A DNA stretch of 33,678 nt, taken from IMG/VR virus record IMGVR_UViG_3300005074_000010. One strand, written 5' to 3'. A program made the translations under genes and the position numbers. Source of the stretch: a virus. Shown piece after piece: positions 1,080-19,730 of this stretch (the stretch's first letter is position 1; the number at the start of each line of letters is the position of its first letter). The notes beneath the pieces are model-generated. The model saw only the letters and a program-made list of their open reading frames with translations, had not been told where the DNA came from and made no database searches.

Positions 1080-1090
1080 ATTTTATACAA

Positions 1091-1381
1091 ATGCCAAAAT
1101 CAATTTATGTAAAGGGATTCAGGACCTTTAAAAAGAACGATAATGCACCTGAACAACTAGTATGCAAATTACTAGTAACGCCTGAGATGTTGTTTGAACA
1201 GATTAAATCAGGTGAATTAGATGAAGCTCAATCTGAGTATCAAGGTAAGAAGCAGTTTAATATAGATGTATGGGTAACTGATGAGGGTACACTAAATTTT
1301 ACAGCTAATACCTTTAAGCCTGATTCGAGTCAATCAAAAATTACTAAGGTAGCTCAGAAAGACGATGACCTACCATTTTAA
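1091..1381 (+). CDS. 96-aa protein ending in an SSB-type acidic tip (DDDLPF)
   Basis: C-terminus ...KDDDLPF. Sits between the annealase and exonuclease genes. Too short for a canonical SSB. Confidence 0.5.
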   Translation: MPKSIYVKGFRTFKKNDNAPEQLVCKLLVTPEMLFEQIKSGELDEAQSEYQGKKQFNIDVWVTDEGTLNFTANTFKPDSSQSKITKVAQKDDDLPF

Positions 1382-1389
1382 CTAACAAT

Positions 1390-1465
1390 CTAGGGCTCTA
1401 CTGTCTATTTTATTCATTTTATAAATTTTTTAATCATAATTTATTTTTATTATGTAGGGCCCTAG
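1390..1465. repeat. 12-bp GC-rich inverted repeat flanking a 52-nt AT-rich spacer
   Basis: ctagggctctac (1390-1401) pairs with gtagggccctag (1454-1465), with one G.U/mismatch. The spacer is almost pure A/T. Confidence 0.6.
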
Positions 1466-1472
1466 TATTAGT

Positions 1473-2363: not shown

Positions 2364-2761
2364 AAGATATAATGAATGCTGTAGAGAAAGAGTACAAGAT
2401 AAATATATCAGTTTCTTCAAGGTCTACAGATTATGTAGAAGCTCGAGCAATATATTATGAGTTATGTAGGCGTTATCTAGGTACAAAATATGCTGATATA
2501 TCTAAATCAGTAAACAGAAACCACGCAACAGTACTACACGCGTTAAAAGAGTTTCCCTATATGATGAGATATAGTGAGGGTATGAAGCTGAAATACTATA
2601 GAATTAGAGAGGCTTTAGACGCTAAGTACAATAAGCTTAGAAATATAACACTAGAGGAGCTAAAACTTAGGTATGATAACCTAGAGTATGAAGCTCAAAA
2701 TATTACTGAGGAGATAATAAAGCTAAAAAAATATATTAGGATTTTGATTTCTGAAAAATAA
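2360..2761 (+). CDS. DnaA-domain-IV-like HTH DNA-binding protein
   Basis: VEARAIYYELCRRYLGTKYADISKSVNRNHATVLHALKEF resembles the DnaA C-terminal signature (...RdHTTVlha). Confidence 0.6.
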   Translation: MKDIMNAVEKEYKINISVSSRSTDYVEARAIYYELCRRYLGTKYADISKSVNRNHATVLHALKEFPYMMRYSEGMKLKYYRIREALDAKYNKLRNITLEELKLRYDNLEYEAQNITEEIIKLKKYIRILISEK

Positions 2762-2778
2762 TTTTATTTTTAAAGGCT

Positions 2779-3153
2779 ATGAAACGTAATCCGTTTTGGA
2801 AGTATTTAGGGCCTGAAGATAGAATGCAAAATTCAGTAATGAGCTTTATAAGAGCGCATTATCCTAAGGCGTTAGTAACACACGCTACAAATGAGGGTAA
2901 GAGAACGCCATTCGAAAGGTATAAGTTAAAATATCTAGGCGCTACAGCTGGAATACCAGATGTACTAGTATTTACACCTAACGCTAAATACAATGGTTTA
3001 GCTATAGAACTGAAGTATAAGTATAACAAACCAACGAAAGCACAAGAAGATTGGCTAAAAGAGCTTAAAAAGTGCGGTTGGTACGCAATAGTTAGTAACG
3101 ATATAGATAAAACAATAGATGTCATTAGAAAATATTTTAAAGATGAATTATAA
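2779..3153 (+). CDS. VRR-NUC domain nuclease
   Basis: GIPDVLVF...LAIELKYKYNKPTKAQEDWLKELKKCGW matches the VRR-NUC pattern (PD..ExK..Q..W). Confidence 0.8.
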   Translation: MKRNPFWKYLGPEDRMQNSVMSFIRAHYPKALVTHATNEGKRTPFERYKLKYLGATAGIPDVLVFTPNAKYNGLAIELKYKYNKPTKAQEDWLKELKKCGWYAIVSNDIDKTIDVIRKYFKDEL

Positions 3154-6814: not shown

Positions 6815-7399
6815 ATGAATTCACAATTAGTAAAGATTAGTAAGGTTAAGATGAACAAATCTAACCCTAGATTTATTAGAGATAATAAGTTTAACAGGTT
6901 AGTAGCGAGCATTAAGGAATTCCCGGAAATGTTAAAATTAAGGCCAATAGTAGTAAATCAGGATATGATTGTACTAGGCGGTAATATGAGGCTAAAGGCC
7001 TGTAAAGAAGCTGGGCTAAAGGAGGTCTATATTGTAGTAGCTGAAGAACTTACAGAAGAACAACAGAGAGAGTTTATTATTAAAGATAATAATAGCTTCG
7101 GTGAATGGGATTGGGATATTATTGCTAATGAGTGGAATGAAGTCAAATTAGAGGAATGGGGTCTTGATGTTTGGAAAGGAGAGCCTGAGAGCGATATGAG
7201 CTTACTAGATGATTTTGATGATTCTATAGTGGATGATATGCAAATGGGAGTAAAGAGAGGTATACAGATACCCTTTAATCTAGAGCATTATGAAGAGGCC
7301 TTTGAGCTTATCAAGTTCTTTAGAGATAGAGGAGATTATGTAGGTATGCTAATAATACAACACTTAAAACAAGTAAGAGCAGAATATGAAAAGAATTGA
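6815..7399 (+). CDS. ParB-like nuclease-domain protein
   Basis: NPRFIRD...LRPIVV...VLGGNMRLKACKEAGLKEVYIVV is a ParB N-terminal domain pattern. Confidence 0.75.
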   Translation: MNSQLVKISKVKMNKSNPRFIRDNKFNRLVASIKEFPEMLKLRPIVVNQDMIVLGGNMRLKACKEAGLKEVYIVVAEELTEEQQREFIIKDNNSFGEWDWDIIANEWNEVKLEEWGLDVWKGEPESDMSLLDDFDDSIVDDMQMGVKRGIQIPFNLEHYEEAFELIKFFRDRGDYVGMLIIQHLKQVRAEYEKN

Positions 7400-8165
7400 A
7401 TTAGTAAAACAAGAGCATAGCGTTACTATTGGAGATGATTGTGGAGATATAGAGCCAAACGTAACAGAAGATAGCCTTTTTATCGAAAATGGAGAGGTAA
7501 TAGGCTTCTACATAGCAGACCTAGCGAAGTACTCGGAAAAGGCCTCAAAATTAGCGCATTTGGCCAATAATGAATTGCGCTCTAAGCGCGTGCCTAAATC
7601 GGTTATGAAGCGTTCATCTGGTTTTGATAATCCTGAAAATGATGTATCTCAATACAGTACAATACTAGGGAGCTGTTTACCTAAGCCACACTTAGGACGT
7701 ACATATGCTACAAGAAGCTCTGTACATAATGTAGAGTCCGCTAAGAACTTTGTGAAAGCTATGTATCTCTTATGTAGAGAAGCTGAAGATATTATAAAGG
7801 AATTAGCACCGACTATATACGAAGAACAGAAAAAATTAATAGAGGAAACAGTACCTGAGAAATGGAGATTCGGTAGGTTGTTTACTAGTAGCATTAGTAA
7901 TTATAATATACCGGCAAATTTTCACATTGACCACGCGAACATTAAAGGCTGTTGTAATGTTATAATAGCAAAGAAGAACAACGCTACAGGAGGACATACA
8001 ACAGTACCTGATTATGGCGCTACAGTTAATAGCTGTGATAATAGTATGCTAGTATATCCAGCCTGGAGAAATATTCACGGAGTTACGCCTATAATTCCTA
8101 CTAGCAAAGACGGCTACAGAAATACACTAGTTTTTTATCCCCTAGCAGGCTTTACAGATTTATAG
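7386..8165 (+). CDS. Putative 2OG-Fe(II) oxygenase-fold protein
   Basis: An HxD (FHIDH) ... H (NIHGV, +51 aa) ... R (YRNTLVFY, +14 aa) triad with spacing typical of double-stranded beta-helix dioxygenases. Confidence 0.45.
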   Translation: MKRIELVKQEHSVTIGDDCGDIEPNVTEDSLFIENGEVIGFYIADLAKYSEKASKLAHLANNELRSKRVPKSVMKRSSGFDNPENDVSQYSTILGSCLPKPHLGRTYATRSSVHNVESAKNFVKAMYLLCREAEDIIKELAPTIYEEQKKLIEETVPEKWRFGRLFTSSISNYNIPANFHIDHANIKGCCNVIIAKKNNATGGHTTVPDYGATVNSCDNSMLVYPAWRNIHGVTPIIPTSKDGYRNTLVFYPLAGFTDL

Positions 8166-8177: not shown

Positions 8178-8519
8178 ATGAGTAAAACGGAGCAAAAAAA
8201 AGAAGCATTACTAGAAGCTCTAGAGATGTCTTTAGGAGTAGTTACTACAGCCTGTAAGCGTATAGGTATAACTAGAGGCACTTACTATAATTGGCTTAGA
8301 GATGATAAAAACTTTAGAGAGCGCGTACAGGATATAAATAATATTGCCTTAGATTTTGCAGAGAGCAAACTCTATGAGCTTATCAAGACAAATAATGTAC
8401 CAGCTACCTTATTCTATCTAAAGACCAAAGGTAAATCTAGAGGCTATATAGAGAGGTCTGAAGTTAGTGTAGAGGGTAATTTCAAATCTAAAGTAATCGA
8501 ATGGACTCCAGCAGAGTAA
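8178..8519 (+). CDS. terS: Terminase small subunit
   Basis: 113 aa, HTH (CKRIGITRGTYYNWLRDDKNFRERV), overlapping and immediately upstream of terL. Confidence 0.7.
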   Translation: MSKTEQKKEALLEALEMSLGVVTTACKRIGITRGTYYNWLRDDKNFRERVQDINNIALDFAESKLYELIKTNNVPATLFYLKTKGKSRGYIERSEVSVEGNFKSKVIEWTPAE

Positions 8520-9679
8520 CGGAATACTGTAACAAACAATTCTATCAGTTAGTAAATTCAGATAAGCGTATCACTATATTACAGGGTGGAGCTAGAAGCG
8601 GAAAAACTTATTCCTGTTGTCAATATCTAGTATATAGATTAACTACTAGTAAGAAACCTATGACTATTACTATTATCAGAGATAGTATGCCCTCCTTGAA
8701 GCGTTCAGTAATGAGAGATTTTTTCAATATACTAGATAAGCTAGGACTATATACACTAGGTAAGCATAATAAGAGTGAGAGTACCTGGACCTATAACGGC
8801 TCAGTAGTACAAATGTTAGGAGCTGATGACCCAGCCAAACTAAGGGGAGCTAAGCACGATATTGCCTTTATTAACGAGGCTAATACTGTTGATTATGAAA
8901 CTTATAGGCAAATAGCTATGAGAACAACAGAGAAGATTATAATTGACTTTAACCCTAGTGAAGCTGTAAGCTGGTTATACTCTGAGCTTATAGATACAGA
9001 TAGCCCTGATATAGATTTTCATATTAGTACCTGGAGAGATAACAAATTTTTACCTCAATCTGTAATAGATGAGATAGAGAAACTTAAATCTAGAGATGAA
9101 GATTACTATAACGTATTTGGACTAGGACAGAGGGCTGTATTTACTAAGAGGCAAATCTATACTACTTGGCAATATATTGACTATGTAGAATTCCCTGATA
9201 TTGATTACTGTTTAGGCCTAGATTTTGGTTACTCACAAGATTGTACAGGAATAGTAAAGGTAGGTAGGCATAATGATAAGCTATATGTAAAGGAAATATG
9301 TTATCGTAAAGGTATGACTAACAAGGATATAGCCAATTTCATTAAAGAGCATAATCTAGAAGATTTATTGATAGTGTGTGATAGTGCTGAGCCTAAGAGT
9401 ATAGAAGAACTTAGAAGAGAGGGCCTTATGGTTAAGCCCTCTATTAAGGGTGCTGGTAGTGTAAATGCTGGTATTAGTAAGCTAAAAGAGTTTGAGGTAT
9501 TTATTAGTAAGTGTAGTAAGAATATCTTTAAAGAGCAACAAGGCTATTTATGGGAAGAACTGAAAGACGGTACTATTATTAACAAGCCTATTACCTCAGC
9601 GCCTGAACATTTATTAGACGCTTTAAGGTATGCTGTATATACTAGATATAAGTATAACGATAGCTTCTTTATAGTATAA
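8501..9679 (+). CDS. terL: Terminase large subunit
   Basis: Walker A GGARSGKTY, Walker B-like IAFINEA, and a C-terminal nuclease region (PBSX/Terminase_3-like). Confidence 0.9.
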   Translation: MDSSRVTEYCNKQFYQLVNSDKRITILQGGARSGKTYSCCQYLVYRLTTSKKPMTITIIRDSMPSLKRSVMRDFFNILDKLGLYTLGKHNKSESTWTYNGSVVQMLGADDPAKLRGAKHDIAFINEANTVDYETYRQIAMRTTEKIIIDFNPSEAVSWLYSELIDTDSPDIDFHISTWRDNKFLPQSVIDEIEKLKSRDEDYYNVFGLGQRAVFTKRQIYTTWQYIDYVEFPDIDYCLGLDFGYSQDCTGIVKVGRHNDKLYVKEICYRKGMTNKDIANFIKEHNLEDLLIVCDSAEPKSIEELRREGLMVKPSIKGAGSVNAGISKLKEFEVFISKCSKNIFKEQQGYLWEELKDGTIINKPITSAPEHLLDALRYAVYTRYKYNDSFFIV

Positions 9680-9722: not shown

Positions 9723-11681
9723 ATGGGACTTATAGATAACCTGAGAGCCTTATTTAAAAACTCACAAAACACTAACGAACAATATAATAGAGCTGTATAC
9801 AATTGGCTAGGTCAATCTGTAATATGGAATAGTGAAAATGATGATACCTATATAGATAAGGGCTATAGGCAAAACGCTACAATATACTCTATAATCAACC
9901 TAGTTACTAAAACTGCTTCTAGTATACCGCTAATGATATATGAGAAAGTAAGGGAGAGCTCTTATCAGAAGTATAGAAGTATGACAAGTGGTATTGTTAC
10001 TAAAGAATCTATACTACAAAGTAAACTACTGAGAAAAGAAGCTCTAGTAGAGTTAGAAGATACTGAGCTACATAGGCTACTAGAAAGACCTAATCCAGCT
10101 CAATCTTTTAGTAGCTTCTTACAAGAAATTATAGCGTTCGGTATGCTTACAGGTAATAGATACATTTATGGTATAGGTCCTGATACAGGCGTTAATCTAG
10201 GAAAATTTAAAGAGCTATATGTATTGCCCTCTCAAAAAATGGAGATTGTATCAGGTGGATTAATGCAACCTGTAAAAGAATATACTCTACAGTATAACGG
10301 AGAATATAAAATACCAGCAGACGCTATCTGTCATATAAAGGATTTTAACCCATATTTTGACGGCTCAGGCTCTAATCTATACGGACAAAGTCCTCTTAAA
10401 GCTGGTCTAAGAAGTTTAACTACTAACAACGAAGCTGTACAAACAGGCGTAAAATATCTACAGAATCAAACAGCTAGAGGTATACTAACAACTCAAGAAG
10501 AGGACGGAATAAATGAAGTACAAGCACAACAGCTAAAGGATAAATTTAGACAAGCTCATCAAGGGTCTAGTAATGCTGGAGATATTCTTATTAGCCCTAA
10601 GAAGATGTCTTGGGTAAATTTTGGATTATCTGCTACTGATTTATCACTAATCGAACAATATAACGCCTCAGTAAAAGACCTTTGTAATATATACAATGTT
10701 CCTGTACAGATGCTGAATAATACAGATAGCGCTACATATAACAATATGAAAGAGGCTAAGAAAGCACTATATCAACAATGCGTAATACCTCAACTGATAA
10801 ATATTAGAGATGAATTTAATAGGTGGCTTGCTCCTAAGTTTGGAGAGAAAATCTGTATAGATTTTGATTTTACTAGTATACCTGAATTACAAGAAGAAAC
10901 AGAGAAACTAGTAGACCAAATGGCAAAATCTTGGTGGCTTACTCCTAATGAAAAGAGAGAAGCTATGAGCTTTGGTGTAGATGAAGAAGAAGAAGCTCTT
11001 AATGATTACTATATACCAGCTAATCTAATGCCTGCGAAAGGAAGTGATATAAATCTAGTGAATCCTACATTACCTACAGAAGAAGTACAAGAAGAAGAGC
11101 CTATAGAGGCACCTGTATTCAGTACTCAAGAGGAAGCTGAAGCTGAAGCTGAGAGATTAGGAGGCTCAGGTTATCACACTCACGAGCAAGGAGGAGAAAC
11201 AATTTTTATGCCATTTTCCACGCACGAGGCGTACGAACAAGCGGTCAAATATGTCAAAGGCTTAAAACACAGCGAAGTGTCCGCAAATGTGCCTAAAAAC
11301 GTCCCAGCGGACGTATCTCAGCCTAGCGCCCAGCCCAAAATTTTGAAGCAAGAGAGTTACGATACTTACCCTCAAGGAGCTACTAATAACGCTAAGAGAA
11401 TGATAGCCTGGAGAGAGAAGTACGGTAGAGATGTAGTACAAGGTGGTACTAATGTAGGCTGGACTAGAGCCTCTCAGTTATCTAAGAGAGAGCCCTTATC
11501 AGTAGAAACTTTAGCAAGAGTAAAATCATTCTTAGCAAGACATAAAGAGAACGCTAAGATAGACCCAGATTATAGAGGTACTCCCTGGAGAGATAAAGGG
11601 TATGTAGCATATAACTTATGGGGAGGAGAATCTATGAGGACTTGGGTAAATAGATTGTTCGATAGATTAGATAATGAGTAA
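9723..11681 (+). CDS. Portal protein with a C-terminal extension of about 200 aa
   Basis: Sits just downstream of terL. The first ~440 aa look portal-like. An acidic linker is followed by the modules GYHTHE..G..FMPF.THE.Y and AKRMIAWREKYGR...GGT.VGW.RA.QL...ARHKEN...NLWGG. Confidence 0.85.
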   Translation: MGLIDNLRALFKNSQNTNEQYNRAVYNWLGQSVIWNSENDDTYIDKGYRQNATIYSIINLVTKTASSIPLMIYEKVRESSYQKYRSMTSGIVTKESILQSKLLRKEALVELEDTELHRLLERPNPAQSFSSFLQEIIAFGMLTGNRYIYGIGPDTGVNLGKFKELYVLPSQKMEIVSGGLMQPVKEYTLQYNGEYKIPADAICHIKDFNPYFDGSGSNLYGQSPLKAGLRSLTTNNEAVQTGVKYLQNQTARGILTTQEEDGINEVQAQQLKDKFRQAHQGSSNAGDILISPKKMSWVNFGLSATDLSLIEQYNASVKDLCNIYNVPVQMLNNTDSATYNNMKEAKKALYQQCVIPQLINIRDEFNRWLAPKFGEKICIDFDFTSIPELQEETEKLVDQMAKSWWLTPNEKREAMSFGVDEEEEALNDYYIPANLMPAKGSDINLVNPTLPTEEVQEEEPIEAPVFSTQEEAEAEAERLGGSGYHTHEQGGETIFMPFSTHEAYEQAVKYVKGLKHSEVSANVPKNVPADVSQPSAQPKILKQESYDTYPQGATNNAKRMIAWREKYGRDVVQGGTNVGWTRASQLSKREPLSVETLARVKSFLARHKENAKIDPDYRGTPWRDKGYVAYNLWGGESMRTWVNRLFDRLDNE

Positions 11682-12519
11682 ATTTTACGATAGTTTTAGA
11701 GGCGCATATGCAAAGGCTAGAGGTATTACAGAGAAAAAAGTATTACCTAAAGTATACAATTACTACATAGACCAATTCTCTAAGCTTACTAAGAAATTTT
11801 TAGAAACAGGCTCTTATAATCCTATTGGATTTTTTCAACAAAAATTTATAACTGATTTGTACGCACATATATACATTAATACAGGTATGTATTTTGTACT
11901 CTGGTATGCTGATAATTTTAGAAAATACTCTACAAAACAAGTAGACCCTGAATTATATCTACAGGAATGGGAAGCTACTTTCAAATGGTACTCAAAACAA
12001 ATGGCTGAGGTATGGGGTCCTGAAATTACTAGAACTGCTACAAGGTCCGCTATAAGAACTTTTGAAGCTCTTATGAAAGACCCTGAGTTTGCTATGCTAG
12101 GAGTAGAGCAAAAGGCGCGCGTATTAGCGCGAAAACACGAGCATATAGGTATGGTTAATAGCAAAAGAATAATAGCTACAGAAACTACAAGAATATCAAA
12201 TTACGCCTTAGAACAATCGGCTACTACACTATTTCAACCTGATGATTTAAAAAAATATTGGATTGCCTCTATTGACGGAGCAGAAAGAAGCTCACATAAT
12301 GTAGCACACTATAAATATCAAAAGGGAATACCTATGAAAGAGAAATACAATGTAGGCGGTGAAATGCTAGATAGGCCAGGTGCTGGATTCTTACCAGAAA
12401 ATAATATCAACTGTAGATGTGTTAGTGTAGCTTTACCTGTACCGGACGCTGAGCCTAATGTGGAATTAGATAGCTTTGGTTTTGGTATGGCTGGGGGTAA
12501 GACCACTAATTGGTACTAG
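11674..12519 (+). CDS. Minor head protein, Mu F / SPP1 gp7 family
   Basis: Position after the portal gene, and the signature ...PENNINCRCVSV near the C-terminus. Confidence 0.8.
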   Translation: MSKFYDSFRGAYAKARGITEKKVLPKVYNYYIDQFSKLTKKFLETGSYNPIGFFQQKFITDLYAHIYINTGMYFVLWYADNFRKYSTKQVDPELYLQEWEATFKWYSKQMAEVWGPEITRTATRSAIRTFEALMKDPEFAMLGVEQKARVLARKHEHIGMVNSKRIIATETTRISNYALEQSATTLFQPDDLKKYWIASIDGAERSSHNVAHYKYQKGIPMKEKYNVGGEMLDRPGAGFLPENNINCRCVSVALPVPDAEPNVELDSFGFGMAGGKTTNWY

Positions 12520-12557
12520 TAGTAAAAATTTATTATCTTTACAAAAAATTTTTAGAT

Positions 12558-13232
12558 ATGCAATTAATATACAAACAAAGTCCTTTAGGAGAAGTACAGG
12601 ACATAGATAGCAAGAATGGTATAGTAAAGGGCTATGCTAGTTACTTTGATAATAAAGATTCTGATAATGATATTATTAAGAGGGGTGCTTACAAAAAGAC
12701 CATTGAGGAAAATGGTTATAGAGTAAAATATTACTATCAGCACAAACTAGACCAACCTTTAGGGAAAATGAGAGAGCTATATGAAGATGAGAAAGGGCTT
12801 ATGTTTGTAGCAGAAATACCTAAAACTACTCTAGGTAATGATGTACTAGAGTTAATGAGAAATGGTATAATTACTGAGAATTCAGTAGGAATTATGCCTA
12901 TACAGAAAGAAATTAAAGAGGGTTATAGAGAATTAACTGAAGTAAAGCTGTATGAAATATCAGCTGTTAGTTTGGCTAGTAACGACCAAGCTAAGATACT
13001 AGACGTTAAAGGAATGAAAAATTTTGATGATGTTTACAAAAGATATGATAATCTCTGTAAACTTATCAGAAAGGGCAATATCTCTGATGAAATGGGATAT
13101 GCTCTAGAAGCAGAAATCTTAAAGCTAAAAGGAGTTTTTACAAGTTTAGCTACTCAGCCAGCGGAAGCTACTGAGCCAGAAGTTAAAAATGATAGTTCAG
13201 CTTACAGATTGTTAATAGATAAATTAAAATAA
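12558..13232 (+). CDS. Prohead protease (HK97 / S78 family)
   Basis: GIVKGYASYFDNKDSDNDII..GAYKKTI, YYYQHK...PLGKM, EISAVSLASN. The ATG at 12558 is preferred over the alternative-start extension from 12510. Confidence 0.85.
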   Translation: MQLIYKQSPLGEVQDIDSKNGIVKGYASYFDNKDSDNDIIKRGAYKKTIEENGYRVKYYYQHKLDQPLGKMRELYEDEKGLMFVAEIPKTTLGNDVLELMRNGIITENSVGIMPIQKEIKEGYRELTEVKLYEISAVSLASNDQAKILDVKGMKNFDDVYKRYDNLCKLIRKGNISDEMGYALEAEILKLKGVFTSLATQPAEATEPEVKNDSSAYRLLIDKLK

Positions 13233-13258
13233 ATTTTAAACTTTTAAATCTTTTGGTT

Positions 13259-14446
13259 ATGAATGAAGAATTGAAGAAAGAGATGAATGAACTTGGCGAC
13301 ATTATAGACGCTAAGATTGAAAAAGCATCTCAACAAGCAATAGAGAGAGCAGACCAGAAAGCCGATGAAACTTTAAAGCGTGAAATTGATAATCTAATGA
13401 ACAAGTTTAACGAGCGTATGGACGCTGTAGAAGTTGCTCAGAAGAAAAATGCAGAAGCTAGTAGTGCTACTAAAAAGAGCTTCAGAACTGCTTTAGAGGA
13501 AAAATTAGCTGAAGGTGCATTAGAAGCCTTTACTAAAGGTAATGCAAATGCTACTACTCTAGAAATTAAAGCCGATATGACTACAGGCGCGGACTTTACA
13601 GGAGATGTAATACCTCCTACAAGAGTTCCAGGTTATAAGTACGACCCTACTAGAACTTTCCATATGAGAGATATTCTAGCTCAAGGTAGTACAGATAGTG
13701 ATGTTGTTAGATATGTAAAGGAGTCAGGTTATTCAGACGGTAATGCACCCAAAAATGAGGGTCAAACATTAGGTCAATCTGATTTTGATATGACAGCTGT
13801 ATCTGTTCCTGTAGAGAAAATCGGTACTTACTTTAGAATCTCTGAAGAAATGATGGATTCTACACCGCAATTATCTGCGTATTTAAGCGCAAGAGCACCA
13901 GAAAAATTATTAGCTGTAGAAGATAGCCAGATTGTATCTGGTAACGGTACAGCTCCAAATCTTAGCGGATTATTAACTTCTGCTACAGGTTTCACAGGAG
14001 CTGGATTTGCTAGTTCTATTTCAAACGCTAATCAGTTTGATGTATTAGCTGTTGCTCTTAATCAATTAGCTGTAGCTAATTACTCTGCAGATTATATTTT
14101 ACTAAATCCTGTAGATTGGCATAAATTAAGCTTACAAAAAGCTACTACTAAAGAATATTTAGTGAGTGATTGGCAAGCTGGTATGGTGCCTAGAATTATG
14201 GGCGTTCCTGTTATCCCTACTACTGCAATCAATAGTGATAAATATATCGTTGGTAATTTTGCTCAAGGAGCTCAATTATGGATTAAAGATAACGTATCAT
14301 TAGGATTCTTTAGAGAGGACGGTACTAACGTAAGAGACGGATTTGTAACAGTAAGATGTCAAGAGAGAGTTACTCTTGCTACTTACTTACCAAATGCGTT
14401 TGTTCACGGAGATTTCTCAGCGGACATTACGACTATCGGAGCATAA
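13259..14446 (+). CDS. Major capsid protein (HK97 fold) with an N-terminal coiled-coil delta/scaffold region
   Basis: Follows the protease. Charged coiled-coil N-terminus, then a capsid-like body (...PNLSGLL...LLNPVDW...). Confidence 0.85.
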   Translation: MNEELKKEMNELGDIIDAKIEKASQQAIERADQKADETLKREIDNLMNKFNERMDAVEVAQKKNAEASSATKKSFRTALEEKLAEGALEAFTKGNANATTLEIKADMTTGADFTGDVIPPTRVPGYKYDPTRTFHMRDILAQGSTDSDVVRYVKESGYSDGNAPKNEGQTLGQSDFDMTAVSVPVEKIGTYFRISEEMMDSTPQLSAYLSARAPEKLLAVEDSQIVSGNGTAPNLSGLLTSATGFTGAGFASSISNANQFDVLAVALNQLAVANYSADYILLNPVDWHKLSLQKATTKEYLVSDWQAGMVPRIMGVPVIPTTAINSDKYIVGNFAQGAQLWIKDNVSLGFFREDGTNVRDGFVTVRCQERVTLATYLPNAFVHGDFSADITTIGA

Positions 14447-14471
14447 TAGTAAGTCAATACTATAAAAATTA

Positions 14472-14499
14472 AGAGGTCAATTATGGCCTCTTTTTTTTT
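14472..14499 (+). terminator. Rho-independent terminator after the capsid gene
   Basis: Stem agaggtc/ggcctct (7 bp, one G.U), loop aattat, then T9. Confidence 0.75.
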
Positions 14500-14531
14500 G
14501 CTTTTTTTTGAAATTTTGACAAAATCGCATA

Positions 14532-14571
14532 TACGATTTAAGGCCATTTTTCGGCGTTTTGCGGGACTTTC
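14532..14571 (+). promoter_or_regulatory. Iteron/operator-like motif cluster R2
   Basis: tacgatttaag ... ggcgttttgcgggactttc, about 80% identical to 147-186. A nearby palindrome tttgc-ca-gcaaa lies at 14608-14619 and ttttgcg at 14682-14688. Confidence 0.55.
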
Positions 14572-14706
14572 CCACCTCGCTGATATATGACATTCAAAAA
14601 TTTTTGTTTTGCCAGCAAACGAAATTTTCCAGAGAAGAAAAAATCACGAAATAAAAAAAATTAAAAAAAATTTTAAATTTATTTTGCGAAATCCAAAAAA
14701 AGTTAA

Positions 14707-14714
14707 GACATTTG
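14707..14714 (+). promoter_or_regulatory. Imperfect -7-like box GACATTTG (TTTGTAT core) upstream of the island genes
   Basis: One mismatch to TAnnTTTG; 31 nt before the ATG at 14746. Confidence 0.3.
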
Positions 14715-14745
14715 TATCAACATTAACAACGCAAACAACAACACT

Positions 14746-14913
14746 ATGACAACAGTAAGCAACACTAAGGAAATCCGCTCAATCAATATTGAAAAAGTGC
14801 TAACCTCTTACAAGGTTACCTGTATGAAAGGTAATCAAGTAATAGTAAAGCGCTTCGACTCTGAAGAGTTCGCTAATCTTTTATCATCAACGTTCAACGC
14901 GTTAATCAACTAA
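14746..14913 (+). CDS. Island small ORF (55 aa)
   Basis: Hand-translated (MTTVSNTKEIRSINIEKV...). Preceded by the AACAACACTATG leader. Confidence 0.45.
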   Translation: MTTVSNTKEIRSINIEKVLTSYKVTCMKGNQVIVKRFDSEEFANLLSSTFNALIN

Positions 14914-14944
14914 TATTAATAATAACACAATAAAAACAACAATT

Positions 14945-15091
14945 ATGAACACAACACTAAACACTTTCGTAACAGCTCAAGCTCAAACTTTTTTCTGTTT
15001 AACTGATAAGCTCGATAGAGATTATGCTAGAGGCTTCATTACAGAAGCAGAATACAAGAACTCTCTAAGAGAACTGAGAAGAGCTGTATAA
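14945..15091 (+). CDS. Island small ORF (48 aa)
   Basis: Hand-translated (MNTTLNTFVTAQAQTFFCLTDKLDRDYARGFITEAEYKNSLRELRRAV). Confidence 0.45.
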   Translation: MNTTLNTFVTAQAQTFFCLTDKLDRDYARGFITEAEYKNSLRELRRAV

Positions 15092-15160
15092 AGTCGTTAG
15101 GGCGACTCTAAATAGGTTACTAAGCCCTAAGCGTTTGCCTCCTAGTAAGTCGGGAGGCAA
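15092..15160 (+). ncRNA. Bipartite hairpin element, copy A
   Basis: P1 is cgttagggc (15095-15103) / gccctaaGcg (15124-15133). A single T follows. P2 is ttgcctcc (15135-15142) / ggaggcaa (15153-15160). Confidence 0.6.
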
Positions 15161-15200
15161 GGAAACAATAACAGGAGGAAACTCCACAAAACACAAAAAA

Positions 15201-15728
15201 ATGTTTATCAAATTAACAGAATTCGAATGGTTAAAAGTTAGTCAAGCTATGTCTTGCTACAGAGCAACACTAAAGAAAGAGCACAACGCTCTTTGGGATT
15301 TAAGTAACAAGGAGGTCAAAGATATTTGCGCTTTAACACACAAGTCCTTAGACGGTAAAATTAATCAAACGCTATTAGTAGAAGCTAATATGCACAAGCA
15401 AACTAGAGAAATATTTGCTGAGTACAGAGAGAACTTTGAAGGCAAATTTGTAGTAACACAAGCTCAAGCTCTATTTATGCTAGAGTGCCTTTATAACTAC
15501 TTGTCGCACAACAGGTTAGAGCTAAAGAAGCATACAGAAAGTACAAACGGATATATAGCACATTCTTACAGTTCAACAATAGAAGATGTAAGGAACCTAA
15601 TAGGAAAGCTACATAACTCAATAATGTACCAAACTATGCACAGTACTATTACTACTGCTAGTTACATTGAAGAATCTCTACCAGGTTTAGGAGAGCATAC
15701 AGAGTATACTCAAAGAATGAACGCTTAA
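15201..15728 (+). CDS. Island hypothetical protein (175 aa)
   Basis: The ATG at 15201 is preferred. The ORF-track TTG start at 15135 lies inside hairpin P2 of element A. Confidence 0.6.
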   Translation: MFIKLTEFEWLKVSQAMSCYRATLKKEHNALWDLSNKEVKDICALTHKSLDGKINQTLLVEANMHKQTREIFAEYRENFEGKFVVTQAQALFMLECLYNYLSHNRLELKKHTESTNGYIAHSYSSTIEDVRNLIGKLHNSIMYQTMHSTITTASYIEESLPGLGEHTEYTQRMNA

Positions 15729-15743
15729 TCACTAATACTAATC

Positions 15744-15763
15744 AGGGCGTGTAAAAGCGCCCT
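15744..15763 (+). other. GC-rich hairpin agggcg-N8-cgccct directly after the stop codon
   Basis: 6-bp GC stem with no U-tract. Followed by the conserved leader TTAATAACAACACTATG. Confidence 0.45.
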
Positions 15764-15777
15764 TTAATAACAACACT

Positions 15778-15900
15778 ATGAACACACAACAATTAATAGA
15801 AAATTTCGAACTTAATCAGGCGGTAATCTACGGAACAGATTATACGCAAGTAATTAACACTATAAAACCTAGTAAAAATGAAACATTATCAGTATACTAA
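15778..15900 (+). CDS. Island small ORF (40 aa)
   Basis: Hand-translated (MNTQQLIENFELNQAVIYG...). Overlaps the next ORF by 23 nt. Confidence 0.35.
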   Translation: MNTQQLIENFELNQAVIYGTDYTQVINTIKPSKNETLSVY

Positions 15901-16075
15901 AGAGCGTATAACAGGAATGGCTAAAGTAGCCACTATTACAGACCTAAAAACAATAGTAAGTAATCTAAAGAAAAAAATGATTATACCTGTATTATACAAA
16001 GGTTACGCGGAAGATAAGCTAATTTTAGACATATGTTCTGCTGAGCTGGAGAGTCGTTTGAGCGACTTAAAATAG
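15878..16075 (+). CDS. Island hypothetical protein (65 aa)
   Basis: ORF track only. Confidence 0.5.
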   Translation: MKHYQYTKERITGMAKVATITDLKTIVSNLKKKMIIPVLYKGYAEDKLILDICSAELESRLSDLK

Positions 16076-16121
16076 CGTTTAAGCTCAAAGCGTGCGTATA
16101 GCTAGGTCAAGTGCTATACGC
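16052..16121 (+). ncRNA. Bipartite hairpin element, copy B
   Basis: P1 is cgtttgagc (16055-16063) / gctcaaaGcg (16083-16092). A single T follows. P2 is gcgtatagc (16094-16102) / gctatacgc (16113-16121). Confidence 0.6.
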
Positions 16122-16162
16122 GGTACGAACTTGCCTTAAAACGGCTTAAAATACTTAAAATT

Positions 16163-16357
16163 ATGACATACGATGAAACACTAGAAGCTTACAAAATCTA
16201 CGAATTAGTAGAGAGTAAGTACAAACTTAGTAGCACTATGAAGAGAAGATTAAAACAATTTTCTATTCAAGAGCTAAGAGAATTAAGGGTCTTTATAGAA
16301 AGAGGTCCTGATGCAAGCTACAATAACGCTATGCAGTGGCTTTGTAGCCTAGATTAG
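16163..16357 (+). CDS. Island hypothetical protein (64 aa)
   Basis: ORF track only. Confidence 0.5.
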   Translation: MTYDETLEAYKIYELVESKYKLSSTMKRRLKQFSIQELRELRVFIERGPDASYNNAMQWLCSLD

Positions 16358-16366
16358 CACAATAAC

Positions 16367-16418
16367 TAGTAAGTAATAGTTATATGAACTTAAAGTGAAT
16401 ATAACTATTACTATACTA
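16367..16418 (+). ncRNA. Long hairpin with conserved loop GAACTTAAAGTGA (family 2, copy 1)
   Basis: 19-bp stem (16367-16385 / 16399-16418) with one bulged A (16413). The outer segment is tagta/tacta. Confidence 0.55.
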
Positions 16419-16433
16419 CTTAATAACAACACT

Positions 16434-16583
16434 ATGAAAGACGAATTACTACAAGAATTACAGAAGCTAGAGAAAGACCTAGTAGCACTATCATTATTTT
16501 CTACTGATGATAATGAGAGAAATGCTATGATGAGAAACTATGCTACTGTACGAAAAACAATCAAATATATTACTAATAACTAA
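16434..16583 (+). CDS. Island small ORF (49 aa, coiled-coil-like)
   Basis: The ATG at 16434 is preceded by TTAATAACAACACTATG. The ORF-track GTG start at 16395 lies in the hairpin loop. Confidence 0.5.
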   Translation: MKDELLQELQKLEKDLVALSLFSTDDNERNAMMRNYATVRKTIKYITNN

Positions 16584-16594
16584 ATTTTAAAATT

Positions 16595-17104
16595 ATGAGT
16601 GAAAACTTAACACCCCCAGAAAACGTTATTTCTAGAGACGATTTACAAGACAAAGTTCTAGAAGCATTATCTAATGACGGTTGGCCTTATTCCTCTGAAC
16701 TAACAGAAGAAGAACTAAGAGAAGCTGTAATAAATGAAGATAGTATTACTTACTATGAGCCTAATAGCTTAAGCTGGTCTGATATGGTTGAAAAAGCAGA
16801 CCTTAAAGGGTGGGTAGAGGACCTAGCCTGTGGTACTAGTGTGTATATACTAACAGATGAGCATATGCGAGGCCTAAGGCAAGGATATAACCTACAGCAA
16901 GACGTATATGTTGATTTGTACGGAGCTGAGGACCGTATCTACGAAGCTCTTACTAGCGGTTATAGTATTGCTATTGACTTTGAAGATGAGCTAGATATGC
17001 GCGAAGTATGGGAGCGTGCCTATGATGATATTAGGGACGCTAAAGAGCAAGAATACTACAGCGACTTAGAAGATGAGTATGATGAAGTAGTAGATGAATA
17101 CTAG
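16595..17104 (+). CDS. Highly acidic 169-aa protein (candidate DNA mimic / anti-restriction protein)
   Basis: Very high D+E content, ending ...EQEYYSDLEDEYDEVVDEY. No enzymatic motif. Confidence 0.6.
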   Translation: MSENLTPPENVISRDDLQDKVLEALSNDGWPYSSELTEEELREAVINEDSITYYEPNSLSWSDMVEKADLKGWVEDLACGTSVYILTDEHMRGLRQGYNLQQDVYVDLYGAEDRIYEALTSGYSIAIDFEDELDMREVWERAYDDIRDAKEQEYYSDLEDEYDEVVDEY

Positions 17105-17146
17105 TAGAATACTTATGAGCTTAAAGCGAAATAAGTATTACTACTA
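17102..17146 (+). ncRNA. Long hairpin with conserved loop GAGCTTAAAGCGAA (family 2, copy 2)
   Basis: 15-bp stem (17102-17116 / 17131-17146) with one bulged A (17140). Same tagta/tacta base as copy 1, but different inner stem sequence. Confidence 0.55.
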
Positions 17147-17154
17147 CAAGAGGA

Positions 17155-17226
17155 CAGGGCCTCTATAAATAGTACTTAAGCCCTGAGCGTTCCCCTAGTT
17201 TTGTGTTGTTGTTGTTGTACTAGGGG
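17155..17226 (+). ncRNA. Bipartite hairpin element, copy C
   Basis: P1 is cagggc (17155-17160) / gccctg (17180-17185) with loop ctctataaatagtacttaa. P2 is cccctagt (17192-17199) / actagggg (17219-17226) with a (GTT)4-containing loop. Confidence 0.5.
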
Positions 17227-17251
17227 AGGTGTAACTAAAAAATTTTTAATA

Positions 17252-17398
17252 ATGGAACACACTATTGATTTTTTGTATCAGCGCATTAGTAGCTTAGAAG
17301 CTCTAATTAAGCTGAAAGACAAACACATTGAGCGCCTAGAGGCACAGCTCGATAAGACACGAACTATTAACCCTAAAAAAGAAAACTATGGAAGATAA
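17252..17398 (+). CDS. Island small ORF (48 aa, coiled-coil-like)
   Basis: The ATG at 17252 is preferred. The ORF-track start at 17201 (MCCCCC...) translates the GTT repeat inside hairpin P2. Confidence 0.5.
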   Translation: MEHTIDFLYQRISSLEALIKLKDKHIERLEAQLDKTRTINPKKENYGR

Positions 17399-17810
17399 AA
17401 TCACATTTTGGAACACACTAGAAAAGGACTTACCTACTGAGATAAAGCTTAAAGTAATAAAGCACCTTTACAGCCTTGAAATAGGAGAGCCTACAGATTC
17501 TCACTATCATTCTAACAAATATGAAGTAAGATTGTATACTGAGTACACTAATGATAGCTACGAATACTTCACTATCAATTATAACGGTATTACAGAGCAG
17601 TTTACATATATGCACGATGATTACTGTAATTACATAGCGCACCTGATTCAGGAAGAAAAATACACTAGTATTTACTGTGATGATGATGAGATATTAGATA
17701 CAATAGAGTATGTCTTAGAGAATATTTACAATGACCTTACCTGGAATCACATAAATATTATCGAGGACGCATTAAAGGACCTTAATATAGATATGAAATG
17801 GAAAGTTTAG
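17388..17810 (+). CDS. Island hypothetical protein (140 aa, acidic, Tyr-rich)
   Basis: ORF track only. Confidence 0.55.
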   Translation: MEDKITFWNTLEKDLPTEIKLKVIKHLYSLEIGEPTDSHYHSNKYEVRLYTEYTNDSYEYFTINYNGITEQFTYMHDDYCNYIAHLIQEEKYTSIYCDDDEILDTIEYVLENIYNDLTWNHINIIEDALKDLNIDMKWKV

Positions 17811-18220
17811 AATTATACACACTAGAGGCGCTTCACAGATTTATAGAGAAAGAGCTAGATGATAGTATCTCTATACCGAAGCTTAAGCCAATATACAGAG
17901 AAATTAGAGGCAAATATTTTGCTATGTCCCTAGAGGATTTAGATATGCATATTGAGCTAGATAATCACGAGTACAGAGTAATAGGTAGCTGGTGTATTGA
18001 TAGAGTGCACAAAGAAGCTACTAAGGATATAGTACAAGAATGTTACTTTACTGAAACCAATCTTGATAAACTCTGGTGGATTAAGATTGATTGGACGGCT
18101 ACAAGTAACACACTAATAGAGACGGACGGCTACGCCAATATGTTTGCTACATATGACCACAACGAATATGAGTTCGATATGGATAATAGAAGCACACTAT
18201 ATTTTTTCAGGACTAATTAA
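17798..18220 (+). CDS. Island hypothetical protein (140 aa) with an ArdA-like C-terminal pattern
   Basis: ...KDIVQECYFTETNLDKLWWIKIDWTATSNTLIETDGY...YFFR loosely resembles the ArdA C-terminus (..YIDYqaygRDL....g..F). Judged from memory only. Confidence 0.5.
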   Translation: MESLELYTLEALHRFIEKELDDSISIPKLKPIYREIRGKYFAMSLEDLDMHIELDNHEYRVIGSWCIDRVHKEATKDIVQECYFTETNLDKLWWIKIDWTATSNTLIETDGYANMFATYDHNEYEFDMDNRSTLYFFRTN

Positions 18221-18231
18221 TACATAACGAT

Positions 18232-18393
18232 ATGAAAGACAAAAAAGAATACAAGAAAAAACTAGAACAAGAAGTCAAAGAGCTTAAAGACCGAAATGCT
18301 AGAATTACGCTACAGATTATGAAGATGAGGTCTGAAAGCAATTACAATAAAACACTAATACGCGGATATGAAGAAGAGCTCGAGAACTTATAA
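18232..18393 (+). CDS. Island small ORF (53 aa, Lys/Glu-rich coiled coil)
   Basis: Hand-translated (MKDKKEYKKKLEQEVKELKDRNARITLQIMKMRSE...). Confidence 0.4.
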   Translation: MKDKKEYKKKLEQEVKELKDRNARITLQIMKMRSESNYNKTLIRGYEEELENL

Positions 18394-18562
18394 AGCTGTA
18401 AAGAACGCACTAAATCGCGTAAGGCGTAATATGCGTGTGCGTAAAGAACGTAAAGAAAAATTAGAGAAAGTAATTTTTTATTGTATATTTACAGCAATAC
18501 TATTCGTTATTACTCTATTGTTTCTTAAGCTAGAGTATTGGATAGAAATAATCTTACACTGA
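18368..18562 (+). CDS. Small membrane protein (basic N-terminus plus one TM helix)
   Basis: RVRRNMRVRKERKEKLEK followed by VIFYCIFTAILFVITLLFL. Confidence 0.5.
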   Translation: MKKSSRTYKAVKNALNRVRRNMRVRKERKEKLEKVIFYCIFTAILFVITLLFLKLEYWIEIILH

Positions 18563-18594
18563 TTGTTTTCTTTGTAAATTTGGTTTTTTAGTTC

Positions 18595-18627
18595 AAGACC
18601 CTTACTGTTGTGAGGGTCTTTTTTTTG
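18595..18627 (+). terminator. Rho-independent terminator closing the island operon
   Basis: Stem aagaccct / agggtctt (8 bp), 10-nt loop, then a T-run. Confidence 0.75.
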
Positions 18628-18634
18628 TTTTTAT

Positions 18635-18659
18635 ACGTTTTTTGGCGTTTTGCGGTAAG
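18635..18659 (+). promoter_or_regulatory. Iteron/operator-like motif cluster R3 (ACGTTTT-N3-GCGTTTTGCGGTAAG)
   Basis: Same architecture as R1 and R2. Followed by the TTTTGTATATTGG box (18661-18673) and the palindrome agcaa-aca-ttgct (18695-18707), which spans the nuclease start codon. Confidence 0.5.
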
Positions 18660-18702
18660 ATTTTGTATATTGGTAGGTGATACACCTTAAAATCAGCAAA
18701 CA

Positions 18703-19122
18703 TTGCTTAAAACGTCCAAAAATGAGCTTAAAACGTATATTGACGACAAAAATTTGGTAGGCTGTTGCGCTGAATATATTTTCGCTACGCGATGTATGCA
18801 ACAGGGGTATTTAGTTAGTATGCCTTTACTACAGACGTCTAAGTATGATTGTATACTAGATGTTAATAAAAAATTACTAAAAGTACAGATAAAAAGTATA
18901 GGTATAAACAGAAGAAGAGATAAGGGAAAAAATAGTATACAACTAGTACTTGCTAGAACTCAGGACTTCTACTGTAGGGAAGATGTAGATTATTTTGCTA
19001 TATATCATAGAGAGCTTGACGGCTTCTTTATCATAAAAAATAATCAACAAAAGAGCATTAGAATTAACATTAACGGAAAGTATAAAGAAAATTTTAATAA
19101 CTTTGCTCTATTCTTACACTAA
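18703..19122 (+). CDS. Stand-alone PD-(D/E)XK endonuclease (I-Ssp6803I / PDDEXK_5-like), TTG start
   Basis: CAEYIFATRCMQQGYLVSMPLL..SKYDCILD...LLKVQIKS fits the E...D...(Q/E)xK core of this family. No in-frame ATG occurs before the motif. Confidence 0.55.
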   Translation: MLKTSKNELKTYIDDKNLVGCCAEYIFATRCMQQGYLVSMPLLQTSKYDCILDVNKKLLKVQIKSIGINRRRDKGKNSIQLVLARTQDFYCREDVDYFAIYHRELDGFFIIKNNQQKSIRININGKYKENFNNFALFLH

Positions 19123-19165
19123 GTTAAGTTTGTTTTCTTACATAAGTTATAGTTTGTTATTAAAA

Positions 19166-19194
19166 GGGCTACTAATTAAGTAGCTCTTTTTTTT
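19166..19194 (+). terminator. Rho-independent terminator after the nuclease gene
   Basis: Stem gggctact / agtagctc (8 bp, one G.U), loop aatta, then T8. Confidence 0.7.
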
Positions 19195-19206
19195 GTATCT
19201 TTACTA
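19191..19206 (+). promoter_or_regulatory. Promoter-like box TTTTGTATCTTTACTA (class 2)
   Basis: Near-identical to 23733-23748 (TTTTGTACCTTTACTA). Both lie 14-15 nt before an ATG. Confidence 0.4.
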
Positions 19207-19220
19207 AAAATATTTTACTA

Positions 19221-19730
19221 ATGAGGCAAATAAAGATAATAGCTACTTCAGGCTCAGAGATTGTTAGTACTAGTACAGCTAAGGCTTACTTAAGGGTAGA
19301 TTTCTCAGATGATGATACACTAATAGAGCGTATGATTACTCAGGCGCGCATATGGTGCGAGAATTATATATCTAGAGATATAGTAGCCAAAACAAGGGTA
19401 TACTATTTGCCTAGTACTAACGGTACATTTGACTTACCGTTTGCTCCTGTAGATAGTATTACGCACGTAAAGATTGACTCTGTTGTTGCTACATATAATG
19501 TACTAGGCCTTAATAATGAAACTATTGAGCTCAACGCTGGAGAATCTGAAAAGGTAGAAGTACGTTATGTAACATTAGGAATGTCTGATGATTTACTAAA
19601 GAATGCAATATTACAGCTAGTAGCTTCTTACTATGAGAATAGAGGGGACTTTATGGTTGGTAGTACAGTAAACGAAGTGCCTACTAATGTTAAATCTATA
19701 TTAGCCTCTTTTAAGTCAATGTATATATAA
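19221..19730 (+). CDS. Head-tail connector protein (gp6-like)
   Basis: AKAYLRVDFSDDDTLIERMITQARIWCENYISRDI is typical of the gp6 / Phage_connect_1 family. Confidence 0.75.
   Translation: MRQIKIIATSGSEIVSTSTAKAYLRVDFSDDDTLIERMITQARIWCENYISRDIVAKTRVYYLPSTNGTFDLPFAPVDSITHVKIDSVVATYNVLGLNNETIELNAGESEKVEVRYVTLGMSDDLLKNAILQLVASYYENRGDFMVGSTVNEVPTNVKSILASFKSMYI

Follow-up and report, generated by a model that had tools for sequence, protein, structure and literature searches.

Three pistol ribozymes delimit gene blocks in a variable capsid–connector cassette of a marine phage

Clustered hammerhead ribozymes flank genes in prophages, where they cleave both in vitro and in vivo; by one proposal, they divide long phage transcripts into mRNAs of gene length (PMC3088659). 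For bacterial ribozymes, a role in processing polycistronic RNA has also been suggested (PMC6765202). The chemistry of another self-cleaving class, the pistol ribozymes (Rfam family RF02679; Weinberg et al., 2015; Harris et al., 2015, PMC4604425), has been understood since 2015, with its biological role still open (PMC6765202). Here we describe a locus in the IMG/VR virus record IMGVR_UViG_3300005074_000010, analyzed over its full length of 33,678 nucleotides (nt; hereafter the window), in which thirteen small open reading frames (ORFs) and three pistol ribozymes lie between the HK97-type major capsid gene and the gp6-like head-tail connector gene. The locus belongs to the known class of ribozyme-punctuated phage accessory operons. 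As in the hammerhead-bearing prophages (PMC3088659), several ribozymes on one strand of the phage DNA border individual genes or short gene blocks that vary in identity; one of the prophage cases lies beside a tail gene and flanks an anti-restriction gene. Unlike in those prophages, the ribozymes are pistols, the host is of a Bacteroidota type without Shine-Dalgarno sites, and the array, known from sequence alone, occupies a defined capsid–connector cargo slot found across the phage family.

We consider it reasonably probable that the locus is a moron-like accessory operon in a variable slot, whose polycistronic RNA is cut by the pistols into sub-operon mRNAs. Morons and accessory slots of lambdoid and HK97-like phages hold virion-dispensable genes between late genes, bounded by terminators and varying between close relatives. 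The cassette described here resembles them in lying between conserved genes, in being absent from or different in relatives, and in possessing its own terminator (T2, below). It differs from them in comprising a thirteen-gene operon instead of one gene, in having no promoter shown, in its predicted processing by ribozymes, and in the pairing of its slot with a conserved nuclease gene. The pistol triplet is its most informative content, and the identity of these elements, missed in a first-pass annotation of this DNA, changes what the island is mainly useful for, making it a natural case for asking what pistol ribozymes do. It is easy to read, with three conserved pistols, one small operon, an abundant Tara Oceans phage and short distances to the start codons; further assets are the host type lacking Shine-Dalgarno sites and the natural variants that differ solely in P3 loops or neighboring hairpins.

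An Rfam scan of the whole 33.7-kb window returned three + strand matches to RF02679 (gathering score 34.5 bits), the only matches above any Rfam gathering score; mir-957 and other weak matches fell below threshold and were rejected. Pistol 1 (15092–15167, 44.1 bits, E = 4.7e-5) starts 1 nt past the stop codon of the second ORF (i02) and ends 34 nt before the ATG of i03. Its pairing comprises P1 (15092–96/15103–07), a pseudoknot (15097–102/15125–30), P2 (15116–18/15164–66) and P3 (15134–42/15153–61), with a predicted scissile bond between G15162 and A15163; its orthologue in the close relative L003 scores 58.1 bits. Pistol 2 (16052–16128, 39.7 bits, E = 4.7e-4) ends 35 nt before the ATG of i06, and its elements are P1 (16052–56/16063–67), the pseudoknot (16057–62/16084–89), P2 (16076–78/16125–27) and P3 (16093–102/16113–22), the bond predicted to be cut lying between G16123 and U16124. 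Pistol 3 (17149–17234, 62.0 bits, E = 3.7e-9) ends 18 nt before the ATG of i09 and consists of P1 (17149–53/17160–64), the pseudoknot (17155–59/17181–85), P2 (17173–75/17231–33) and P3 (17190–97/17221–28), with predicted cleavage between G17229 and U17230. The three starts fall from −23 to +45 nt relative to the upstream stop codon, and the ribozymes delimit blocks of 2, 3, 3 and 5 ORFs, all on the + strand. The first-pass annotation had noted repeated RNA elements in the island; these are indeed present, and are the three pistols together with two hairpins that have a loop in common.

Inspection by hand recovered P1 (5 bp), the pseudoknot (6, 6 and 5 bp in pistols 1–3), P2, P3 (9, 10 and 8 bp) and a 2-nt junction (GA, GU and GU) in each copy; P2 consists of three Watson-Crick pairs and a G.A pair throughout. 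Equivalents of the catalytic positions A32, G33-C41, G40 and G42 are present in all three, as is the AAA linker (CUAAAUA, UAAAAUA and AUAAAUA). The pseudoknots (UUAGGG/CCCUAA, UUUGAG/CUCAAA and CAGGG/CCCUG) show compensatory differences between copies. The cores are free of substitutions in up to nine relatives (eight for pistol 1), although neighboring synonymous sites differ by 10–47%; the changes that do occur are confined to P3 loops, namely in pistol 2 of L002 and as a 4-nt insertion in pistol 3 of L003. The elements thus share with the described class (PMC4604425) helices P1–P3, a 6-bp pseudoknot, the AAA linker, a purine at position 32, G33-C41, G40 and G42, a 2-nt junction and nearness to phage genes. 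They depart from typical pistols in the G-A junction of pistol 1, in the G.A pair at the outer end of P2 in all three, and in their long P3 loops (10–21 nt). According to descriptions of the class, pistols are prevalent in Firmicutes and environmental DNA; this array, by contrast, is found in a marine phage of Bacteroidota type.

The gap that holds the array measures 4775 bp, from the end of the capsid gene (13253–14446, PF05065, 2.1e-33) to the start of the connector gene (19221–19730, PF05135, 2.3e-10), both on the + strand. Three + strand terminator-like hairpins divide it into the thirteen-ORF cassette and a separate nuclease gene. T1, 3′ of the capsid gene (14471–14500, hairpin 14471–14492), has a 9-bp stem, a 4-nt loop and a T-run; it is kept in eight relatives, with one stem pair changed from A-T to T.G in L003, and the distant relatives L014 and L025 have an analogous terminator. 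T2 closes the cassette (18595–18628, hairpin 18595–18620) with an 11-bp stem and a T-run and is conserved in relatives, and T3 follows the nuclease gene (19162–19198, hairpin 19162–19190), also with a T-run and with an analogue in L014. Between 13 and 22 kb we counted 9 terminator-like sites, compared with 3.6 ± 2.0 in shuffled sequences. A non-coding + strand leader of 245 nt (14501–14745) without a credible ORF precedes the first small gene. The first-pass annotation had placed the end of the capsid gene at 14446, the start of the connector at 19221, three terminators between them and a stretch of about 250 nt in front of the small ORFs, and this anatomy holds, with hairpin positions a few nucleotides from those it gave.

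Using the capsid protein as query, we retrieved 80 IMG/VR loci (56–98% identity), among them 56 relatives containing both capsid and connector genes, on which the layout counts are based. In 54 of the 56, the order is capsid, terminator, a variable cassette of small ORFs, terminator, nuclease, terminator and connector, the nuclease homologue (37–100% identity) lying directly 5′ of the connector and 684–4644 bp from the capsid gene. L014, for example, has the identical three-terminator architecture filled with different small membrane ORFs. The other two, which form one lineage (L023/L025), have neither cassette nor nuclease, and their capsid and connector genes are 329 bp apart with a terminator in between. 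The window's thirteen ORFs are confined to L001–L003 (capsids 95–98% identical). L004 (capsid 73%) and L010 (71%) carry 2.5 and 4.4 kb of unrelated ORFs in the slot, and the remaining relatives have 0.7–2.2 kb mosaics of different small ORFs, many of them predicted membrane peptides. Clustering of 317 cassette ORFs gave many clusters, and none of the window's was shared beyond L001–L003. Indels separate even the closest relatives: an extra 106-amino-acid (aa) ORF at window position 14916, the loss of i06 in L002, and the loss of one hairpin in L003.

On these alignments we interpret 14447–18630 as the variable cargo slot of a conserved three-part head-module insertion in a marine phage family whose hosts are probably Bacteroidota. 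The accessory character that the first-pass annotation had ascribed to the island is supported by the unrelated ORFs found at 71–73% capsid identity, which also show the island to be hypervariable. Its view that the location is unusual does not hold within the family, 54 of 56 relatives having a cassette at this site; the adjacency of capsid and connector genes that it expected elsewhere was seen only in the L023/L025 lineage. As the slot content of relatives is unrelated, the thirteen proteins cannot be essential virion parts. They might nevertheless be virion or assembly accessories, such as decoration proteins or chaperones expressed late with the capsid, as would suit a cassette on the same strand within the late structural module for which no promoter was found. 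We regard this as highly improbable, given that the genes are absent from relatives with 71–73% identical capsids and from all more distant ones, that a terminator separates them from the capsid gene, and that no island protein matched a structural-protein family. Across dozens of relatives, the slot offers a place to harvest new host-interaction genes. One cluster (c0), a predicted two-helix membrane peptide of 47–65 aa, was found in the cassettes of numerous distant relatives, at 34 loci (L014 5260–5760 and 33 others); its wide occurrence, together with that of other tiny ORFs, suggests that small membrane proteins are the commonest slot cargo. Beyond IMG/VR, megablast of 12.5–21.5 kb found no close GenBank phage, and the best capsid tblastn match was only 33% identical. 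The 52-kb TARA scaffold L202 jumps at 10800–11450 from just past i09 to a ParB_N gene and repeats the head module, which is an assembly join or concatemer-like artefact between variants.

The thirteen cassette ORFs (i01–i13) occupy 14746–18562 on the + strand and encode products of 40–175 aa. Upstream of pistol 1 lie i01 (14746–14913, 55 aa; the ratio of nonsynonymous to synonymous divergence from L003, pN/pS, is 0.62) and i02 (14945–15091, 48 aa, pN/pS 0.37). The second block holds i03 (15201–15728, 175 aa, helical, pN/pS 0.32), i04 (15778–15900, 40 aa) and i05 (15878–16075, 65 aa), which overlaps i04 and has its stop codon within the linker of pistol 2. Between pistols 2 and 3 are i06 (16163–16357, 64 aa; the gene deleted in L002), i07 (16434–16583, 49 aa) and i08 (16595–17104, 169 aa, net charge −35, isoelectric point 4.05, pN/pS 0.19). 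The last block comprises i09 (17252–17398, 48 aa, charged, helical and coiled-coil-like), the acidic i10 (17388–17810, 140 aa, net charge −18) and i11 (17798–18220, 140 aa, net charge −13), the charged helical i12 (18232–18393, 53 aa), which is the fastest evolving (pN/pS 0.68), and i13 (18368–18562, 64 aa), with a basic N-terminus and one transmembrane helix (residues 35–53). All thirteen are orphans. There are exactly three copies of the start context AACAACACTATGA, in front of i01 (14737), i04 (15769) and i07 (16425). L003 keeps all 13 ORFs intact, with pN/pS of 0.08–0.68 at a synonymous divergence (pS) of 0.03–0.47, and on this comparison we take all thirteen to be real genes. Their proteins evolve faster than those of the capsid (0.10), connector (0.10) and nuclease (0.06) genes in the same comparison. 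The repeated A/C-rich start context and the very acidic, charged helical and small membrane proteins (i08; i09 and i12; i13, with its C-terminal transmembrane helix) had all been described correctly from the outset.

Searches of the island proteins against Pfam, PHROGs, NCBIfam, PADLOC and PDB sequences gave zero matches. Three word-index searches of 5.8e9 proteins returned the queries' own clusters only, plus one 43%-identical fragment on contigs of 1.6–1.8 kb, and an exhaustive HMMER search of 1.84e9 representatives with i03 likewise found its own cluster only. The structural check advised with the first-pass annotation was run for i08 and i03; single-sequence AlphaFold2 models reached a mean confidence (pLDDT) of 43 and 58, too weak for comparison, and Foldseek against the PDB gave generic helical bundles only (E > 0.2), with no fold match or assignment. 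The pairs i10/i11 and i02/i03 were considered as paralogues and proved unrelated.

The cargo could nonetheless be directed at the host, as an anti-defence or host-takeover island in which the acidic i08, i10 and i11 act as DNA mimics and i13 as a membrane effector. Hypervariable, orphan and fast-evolving content is consistent with such a role, as is a net charge of −35 within the 169 residues of i08, and an analogy is provided by an Agrobacterium prophage in which triple hammerheads flank the anti-restriction gene ardA beside a tail gene (PMC3088659). However, composition alone is no proof of a DNA mimic: i08 agrees with the mimics ArdA and Ocr in its acidity only, no sequence or fold relationship to a known mimic having been found, and the empty database searches and poor models described above lend the idea nothing. 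We hold an anti-defence function to be possible, with the balance somewhat against it.

The gene between the cassette and the connector (18703–19122, + strand) encodes an I-Ssp6803I-like PD-(D/E)XK nuclease (PDDEXK_5 domain, PF11645, 4.8e-13, 49.7 bits). It matches PDB entry 2OST (1.6e-3), with YD...VQ(I/V)K kept and the D...QxK motif aligned, and the PADLOC HEase model ('homing endonuclease', 3.5e-6). Its ORF has no in-frame ATG before residue 32, and the region conserved among homologues begins upstream of that residue; translation must therefore begin with a TTG, at either 18703 or 18754. The product in public gene calls is truncated, at 108 aa. The nuclease had been counted as part of the island, which the comparison does not bear out: it is conserved at a fixed position in 54 of 56 relatives while the cassette varies, and it is therefore family core and not cargo.

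T4-like phages carry free-standing homing endonuclease genes. Like these and I-Ssp6803I, with which it shares the Pfam family and D...QxK motif, the nuclease is encoded by a small stand-alone gene between essential genes. The slot could then be a homing-endonuclease hot spot, in which the free-standing nuclease cuts the DNA of co-infecting relatives close to the slot, repair copies nuclease and cassette together and thereby renders the slot hypervariable, and the ribozymes are passengers of one cargo. The matches to PF11645, 2OST and the PADLOC model fit this scheme, as do the position of a stand-alone, separately terminated gene between essential ones, the joint presence of cassette and nuclease in 54 relatives and their joint absence in the L023/L025 lineage, and an 18-nt direct repeat that brackets the cassette just 5′ of the nuclease gene. 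Yet the gene is not intron-borne as I-Ssp6803I is, and its distribution is not sporadic like that of selfish endonucleases: it is near-universal at one position, 37–56% identical across the family and strongly constrained (pN/pS 0.06). The fold of I-Ssp6803I is also close to that of Hjc-type Holliday-junction resolvases (PMC3384342). It is equally possible that the enzyme has a housekeeping function in DNA maturation. The nuclease may be domesticated, or an Hjc-like resolvase. We consider the hot spot rather unlikely as a full account of the locus; as an origin of the variability it is compatible with the accessory operon proposed here, and the co-occurrence of nuclease and cassette, with one lineage lacking both, suggests that the nuclease could drive exchange at the slot.

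The repeat that brackets the cassette and its terminator has its left copy in the leader (14547–14564, TTTTTCGGCGTTTTGCGG) and its right copy on the + strand at 18638–18655 (TTTTTTGGCGTTTTGCGG, also given as TTTTTYGGCGTTTTGCGG), with 4,073 bp between them; in L003, 3 nt split the right copy. This repeat, which occurs in the closest relatives only, may have a regulatory function, or may be a scar left by recombination when the cassette was inserted 5′ of the nuclease gene. As a family-wide regulatory site, the repeat GGCGTTTTGCGG was rejected, being present in the closest relatives only.

For the accessory operon, we infer that the pistols cleave in vivo and that this affects expression. The thirteen small genes would be read as one + strand polycistronic RNA, and self-cleavage at the three predicted bonds would give four pieces, carrying i01–i02, i03–i05, i06–i08 and i09–i13. 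Upstream pieces would be capped at their 3′ end by the folded ribozyme, which carries a 2′,3′-cyclic phosphate, and downstream pieces would begin with a 5′-OH and a short A-rich leader of 23–40 nt to the start codon. A Shine-Dalgarno-like motif precedes 1 of 42 genes, and relatives of the phage occur in a Saprospiraceae metagenome-assembled genome (MAG). The host very probably works without Shine-Dalgarno pairing, and accessibility of the leader should therefore matter; in such a host, the new leader would decouple the stability and translation of each block from its upstream content.

In the early region of T7, RNase III sites split the polycistronic transcript, and the resulting mRNAs end in a stabilizing 3′ structure. 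The pistols resemble those sites as structured intercistronic RNA elements that would serve as cut points, and differ from them in that cleavage would be autocatalytic, independent of the host, and would leave 5′-OH and cyclic phosphate ends. Such ends suit RtcB substrates, and the stretches 15163–16123 (961 nt) and 16124–17229 (1106 nt) might accordingly be RNA cassettes that are ligated by an RtcB-type enzyme to form circular mRNAs or mobile RNA units. For clustered hammerheads, products that are circular or spliced were put forward as a possibility by Perreault et al., who sought them and found none (PMC3088659). The window encodes no ligase or reverse transcriptase, and the indels among relatives do not match the ribozyme cleavage sites; we regard this scenario as extremely improbable.

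Several points weigh against processing of the operon by pistols as proposed. The Rfam alignment of pistol 2 is local only and skips P3, although its full structure, including a perfect 10-bp P3, was confirmed by hand. In pistol 1 the junction is G-A instead of G-U, and its P2 has just 3 bp and the G.A pair; in the class, this junction's length is conserved, with only modest conservation of its identity (PMC6154101). Since ten of the 13 ORFs are not preceded by a ribozyme, not every cistron requires processing. No pistol was found in the cassettes of distant relatives, either with Rfam in nine of them or with a relaxed core pattern in the 80 loci and two MAG contigs; the slot thus does not depend on ribozymes. 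Promoter scans of the sigma-70 type performed at chance (35 found, 34.5 expected), as did scans for the Bacteroidota-type promoter (TTTG...TAnnTTTG), which has one match in the window, not in front of the cassette. With no promoter found, transcription of the late operon that reads through T1 may be the only source of cassette expression. Terminators bracket the cassette, but the promoter scans do not support the independent transcription unit claimed in the first-pass annotation. Finally, the pistols that underlie the positional rule given next were found through a core pattern derived from the window and represent a subset of the class.

A pistol-core pattern built from the window's cores matched more than 119 viral stretches, and Rfam scans of 22 of these contigs, unrelated to the window, gave 36 pistols. 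For 25 of these 36, a sense-strand ATG opening an ORF of at least 40 aa lies 17–53 nt downstream; the opposite strand yields 1 of 36. In 8 of the 22 contigs, 2–6 pistols form an array on one strand, and the genes that the pistols flank are mostly anonymous and differ between contigs. Clustered hammerheads in prophages were described in like terms by Perreault et al. (PMC3088659). The island proteins had no match in the 119 other pistol-bearing viral stretches, and so there is no shared "ribozyme-associated gene" here. The positional rule turns "near phage genes" into a specific, testable hypothesis.

The densest array seen, in L141 (306–4313), has six same-strand pistols in 4 kb, each between consecutive ORFs and, apart from the last with its 136 nt, 19–43 nt before a start codon that follows a Shine-Dalgarno motif; its region includes a homologue of the DNA polymerase III beta-clamp. 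L096 (94–475 and 837–912) combines a pistol with a GOLLD RNA (197.9 bits) about 360 nt away. In L084 a type-P5 twister (1059–1113) lies near a DNA match to the pistol-core pattern, where Rfam reports no pistol above threshold.

RiboJ is a synthetic ribozyme insulator. Ribozyme-dependent translation is known from RNA viruses (bioRxiv 10.1101/2024.05.16.594327). In both, as predicted for this locus, a self-cleaving ribozyme just 5′ of an ORF sets the leader and influences translation; those systems are eukaryotic and cap-independent or engineered, whereas the pistols here are in a bacterial phage and their effect is predicted only. Pistol cleavage might serve phage cistrons in general, as a step that enables their translation or insulates them and leaves a 5′-OH leader of about 20–60 nt, a generalization we think unlikely. 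If it were true, then in hosts without Shine-Dalgarno sites efficient translation or stabilization of a downstream block would have to await cleavage, the island would offer three natural instances of ribozyme-gated expression within a late operon, and ribosomes on the upstream cistron might time cleavage. For 5 of 26 pistols (window 16052–16075; L089, L109, L117 and L118), the upstream ORF passes P1 and stops 19–23 nt inside the ribozyme, in the AUAAAUAG linker; this conserved linker offers UAA and UAG in two frames. With the ORF ending inside the linker, translation of the upstream cistron could interfere with ribozyme folding.

Besides the pistols, the cassette contains two similar + strand hairpins, hairpin 1 (16367–16418, loop GAACUUAAAGUGA, −20.2 kcal/mol, z = −6.5) and hairpin 2 (17102–17146, loop GAGCUUAAAGCGA, −17.2 kcal/mol, z = −6.2), the latter precisely missing in L003 through a 38-bp indel. 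Their stems differ and they have in common the 13-nt loop GARCUUAAAGYGA, in which UUAAA can be enclosed by tandem G.A pairs, an R-Y pair and a C-G pair. The element is lineage-specific. No Rfam family matched the loop at E ≤ 1, and the idea of a widespread motif was rejected, as its at least 120 exact IMG/VR matches are chance occurrences in coding sequence without stems. A G+C-rich intercistronic hairpin lies between i03 and i04 (15744–15763). Every intercistronic gap longer than 40 nt that lacks a pistol contains one of these three hairpins, which are probably further processing or stability sites.

Every gene of the window, whose G+C content is about 34%, lies on the + strand, and the window has no tRNA genes. 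The head module upstream of the slot consists of the large terminase (8501–9679), portal (9723–11681), MuF-like (11674–12519) and S78 prohead protease (12510–13232) genes, all preceding the capsid gene, for which gene callers give 395–399 aa and whose true start is likely ATG 13259. The gp6-like connector is followed by a head-completion gene and a gp10-like gene. The early region (573–3153) encodes an ERF recombinase, a DUF3799 PDDEXK exonuclease, a DnaA-C-like helix-turn-helix protein and a VRR-NUC nuclease, which is therefore a second candidate junction-resolving nuclease besides that at 18703. A ParB_N-like gene and, after it, a gene for a Tet/JBP-family 2OG-Fe(II) dioxygenase (PF12851, 4.4e-10) lie at 6815–8165, just 5′ of the small terminase-like gene, and are likely a module for DNA base hypermodification. 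The skew of A over T is much higher in the island's first half (0.19–0.26 in 14500–16500), compared with 0.02 at the capsid end and −0.03 in the nuclease region, at the same G+C content.

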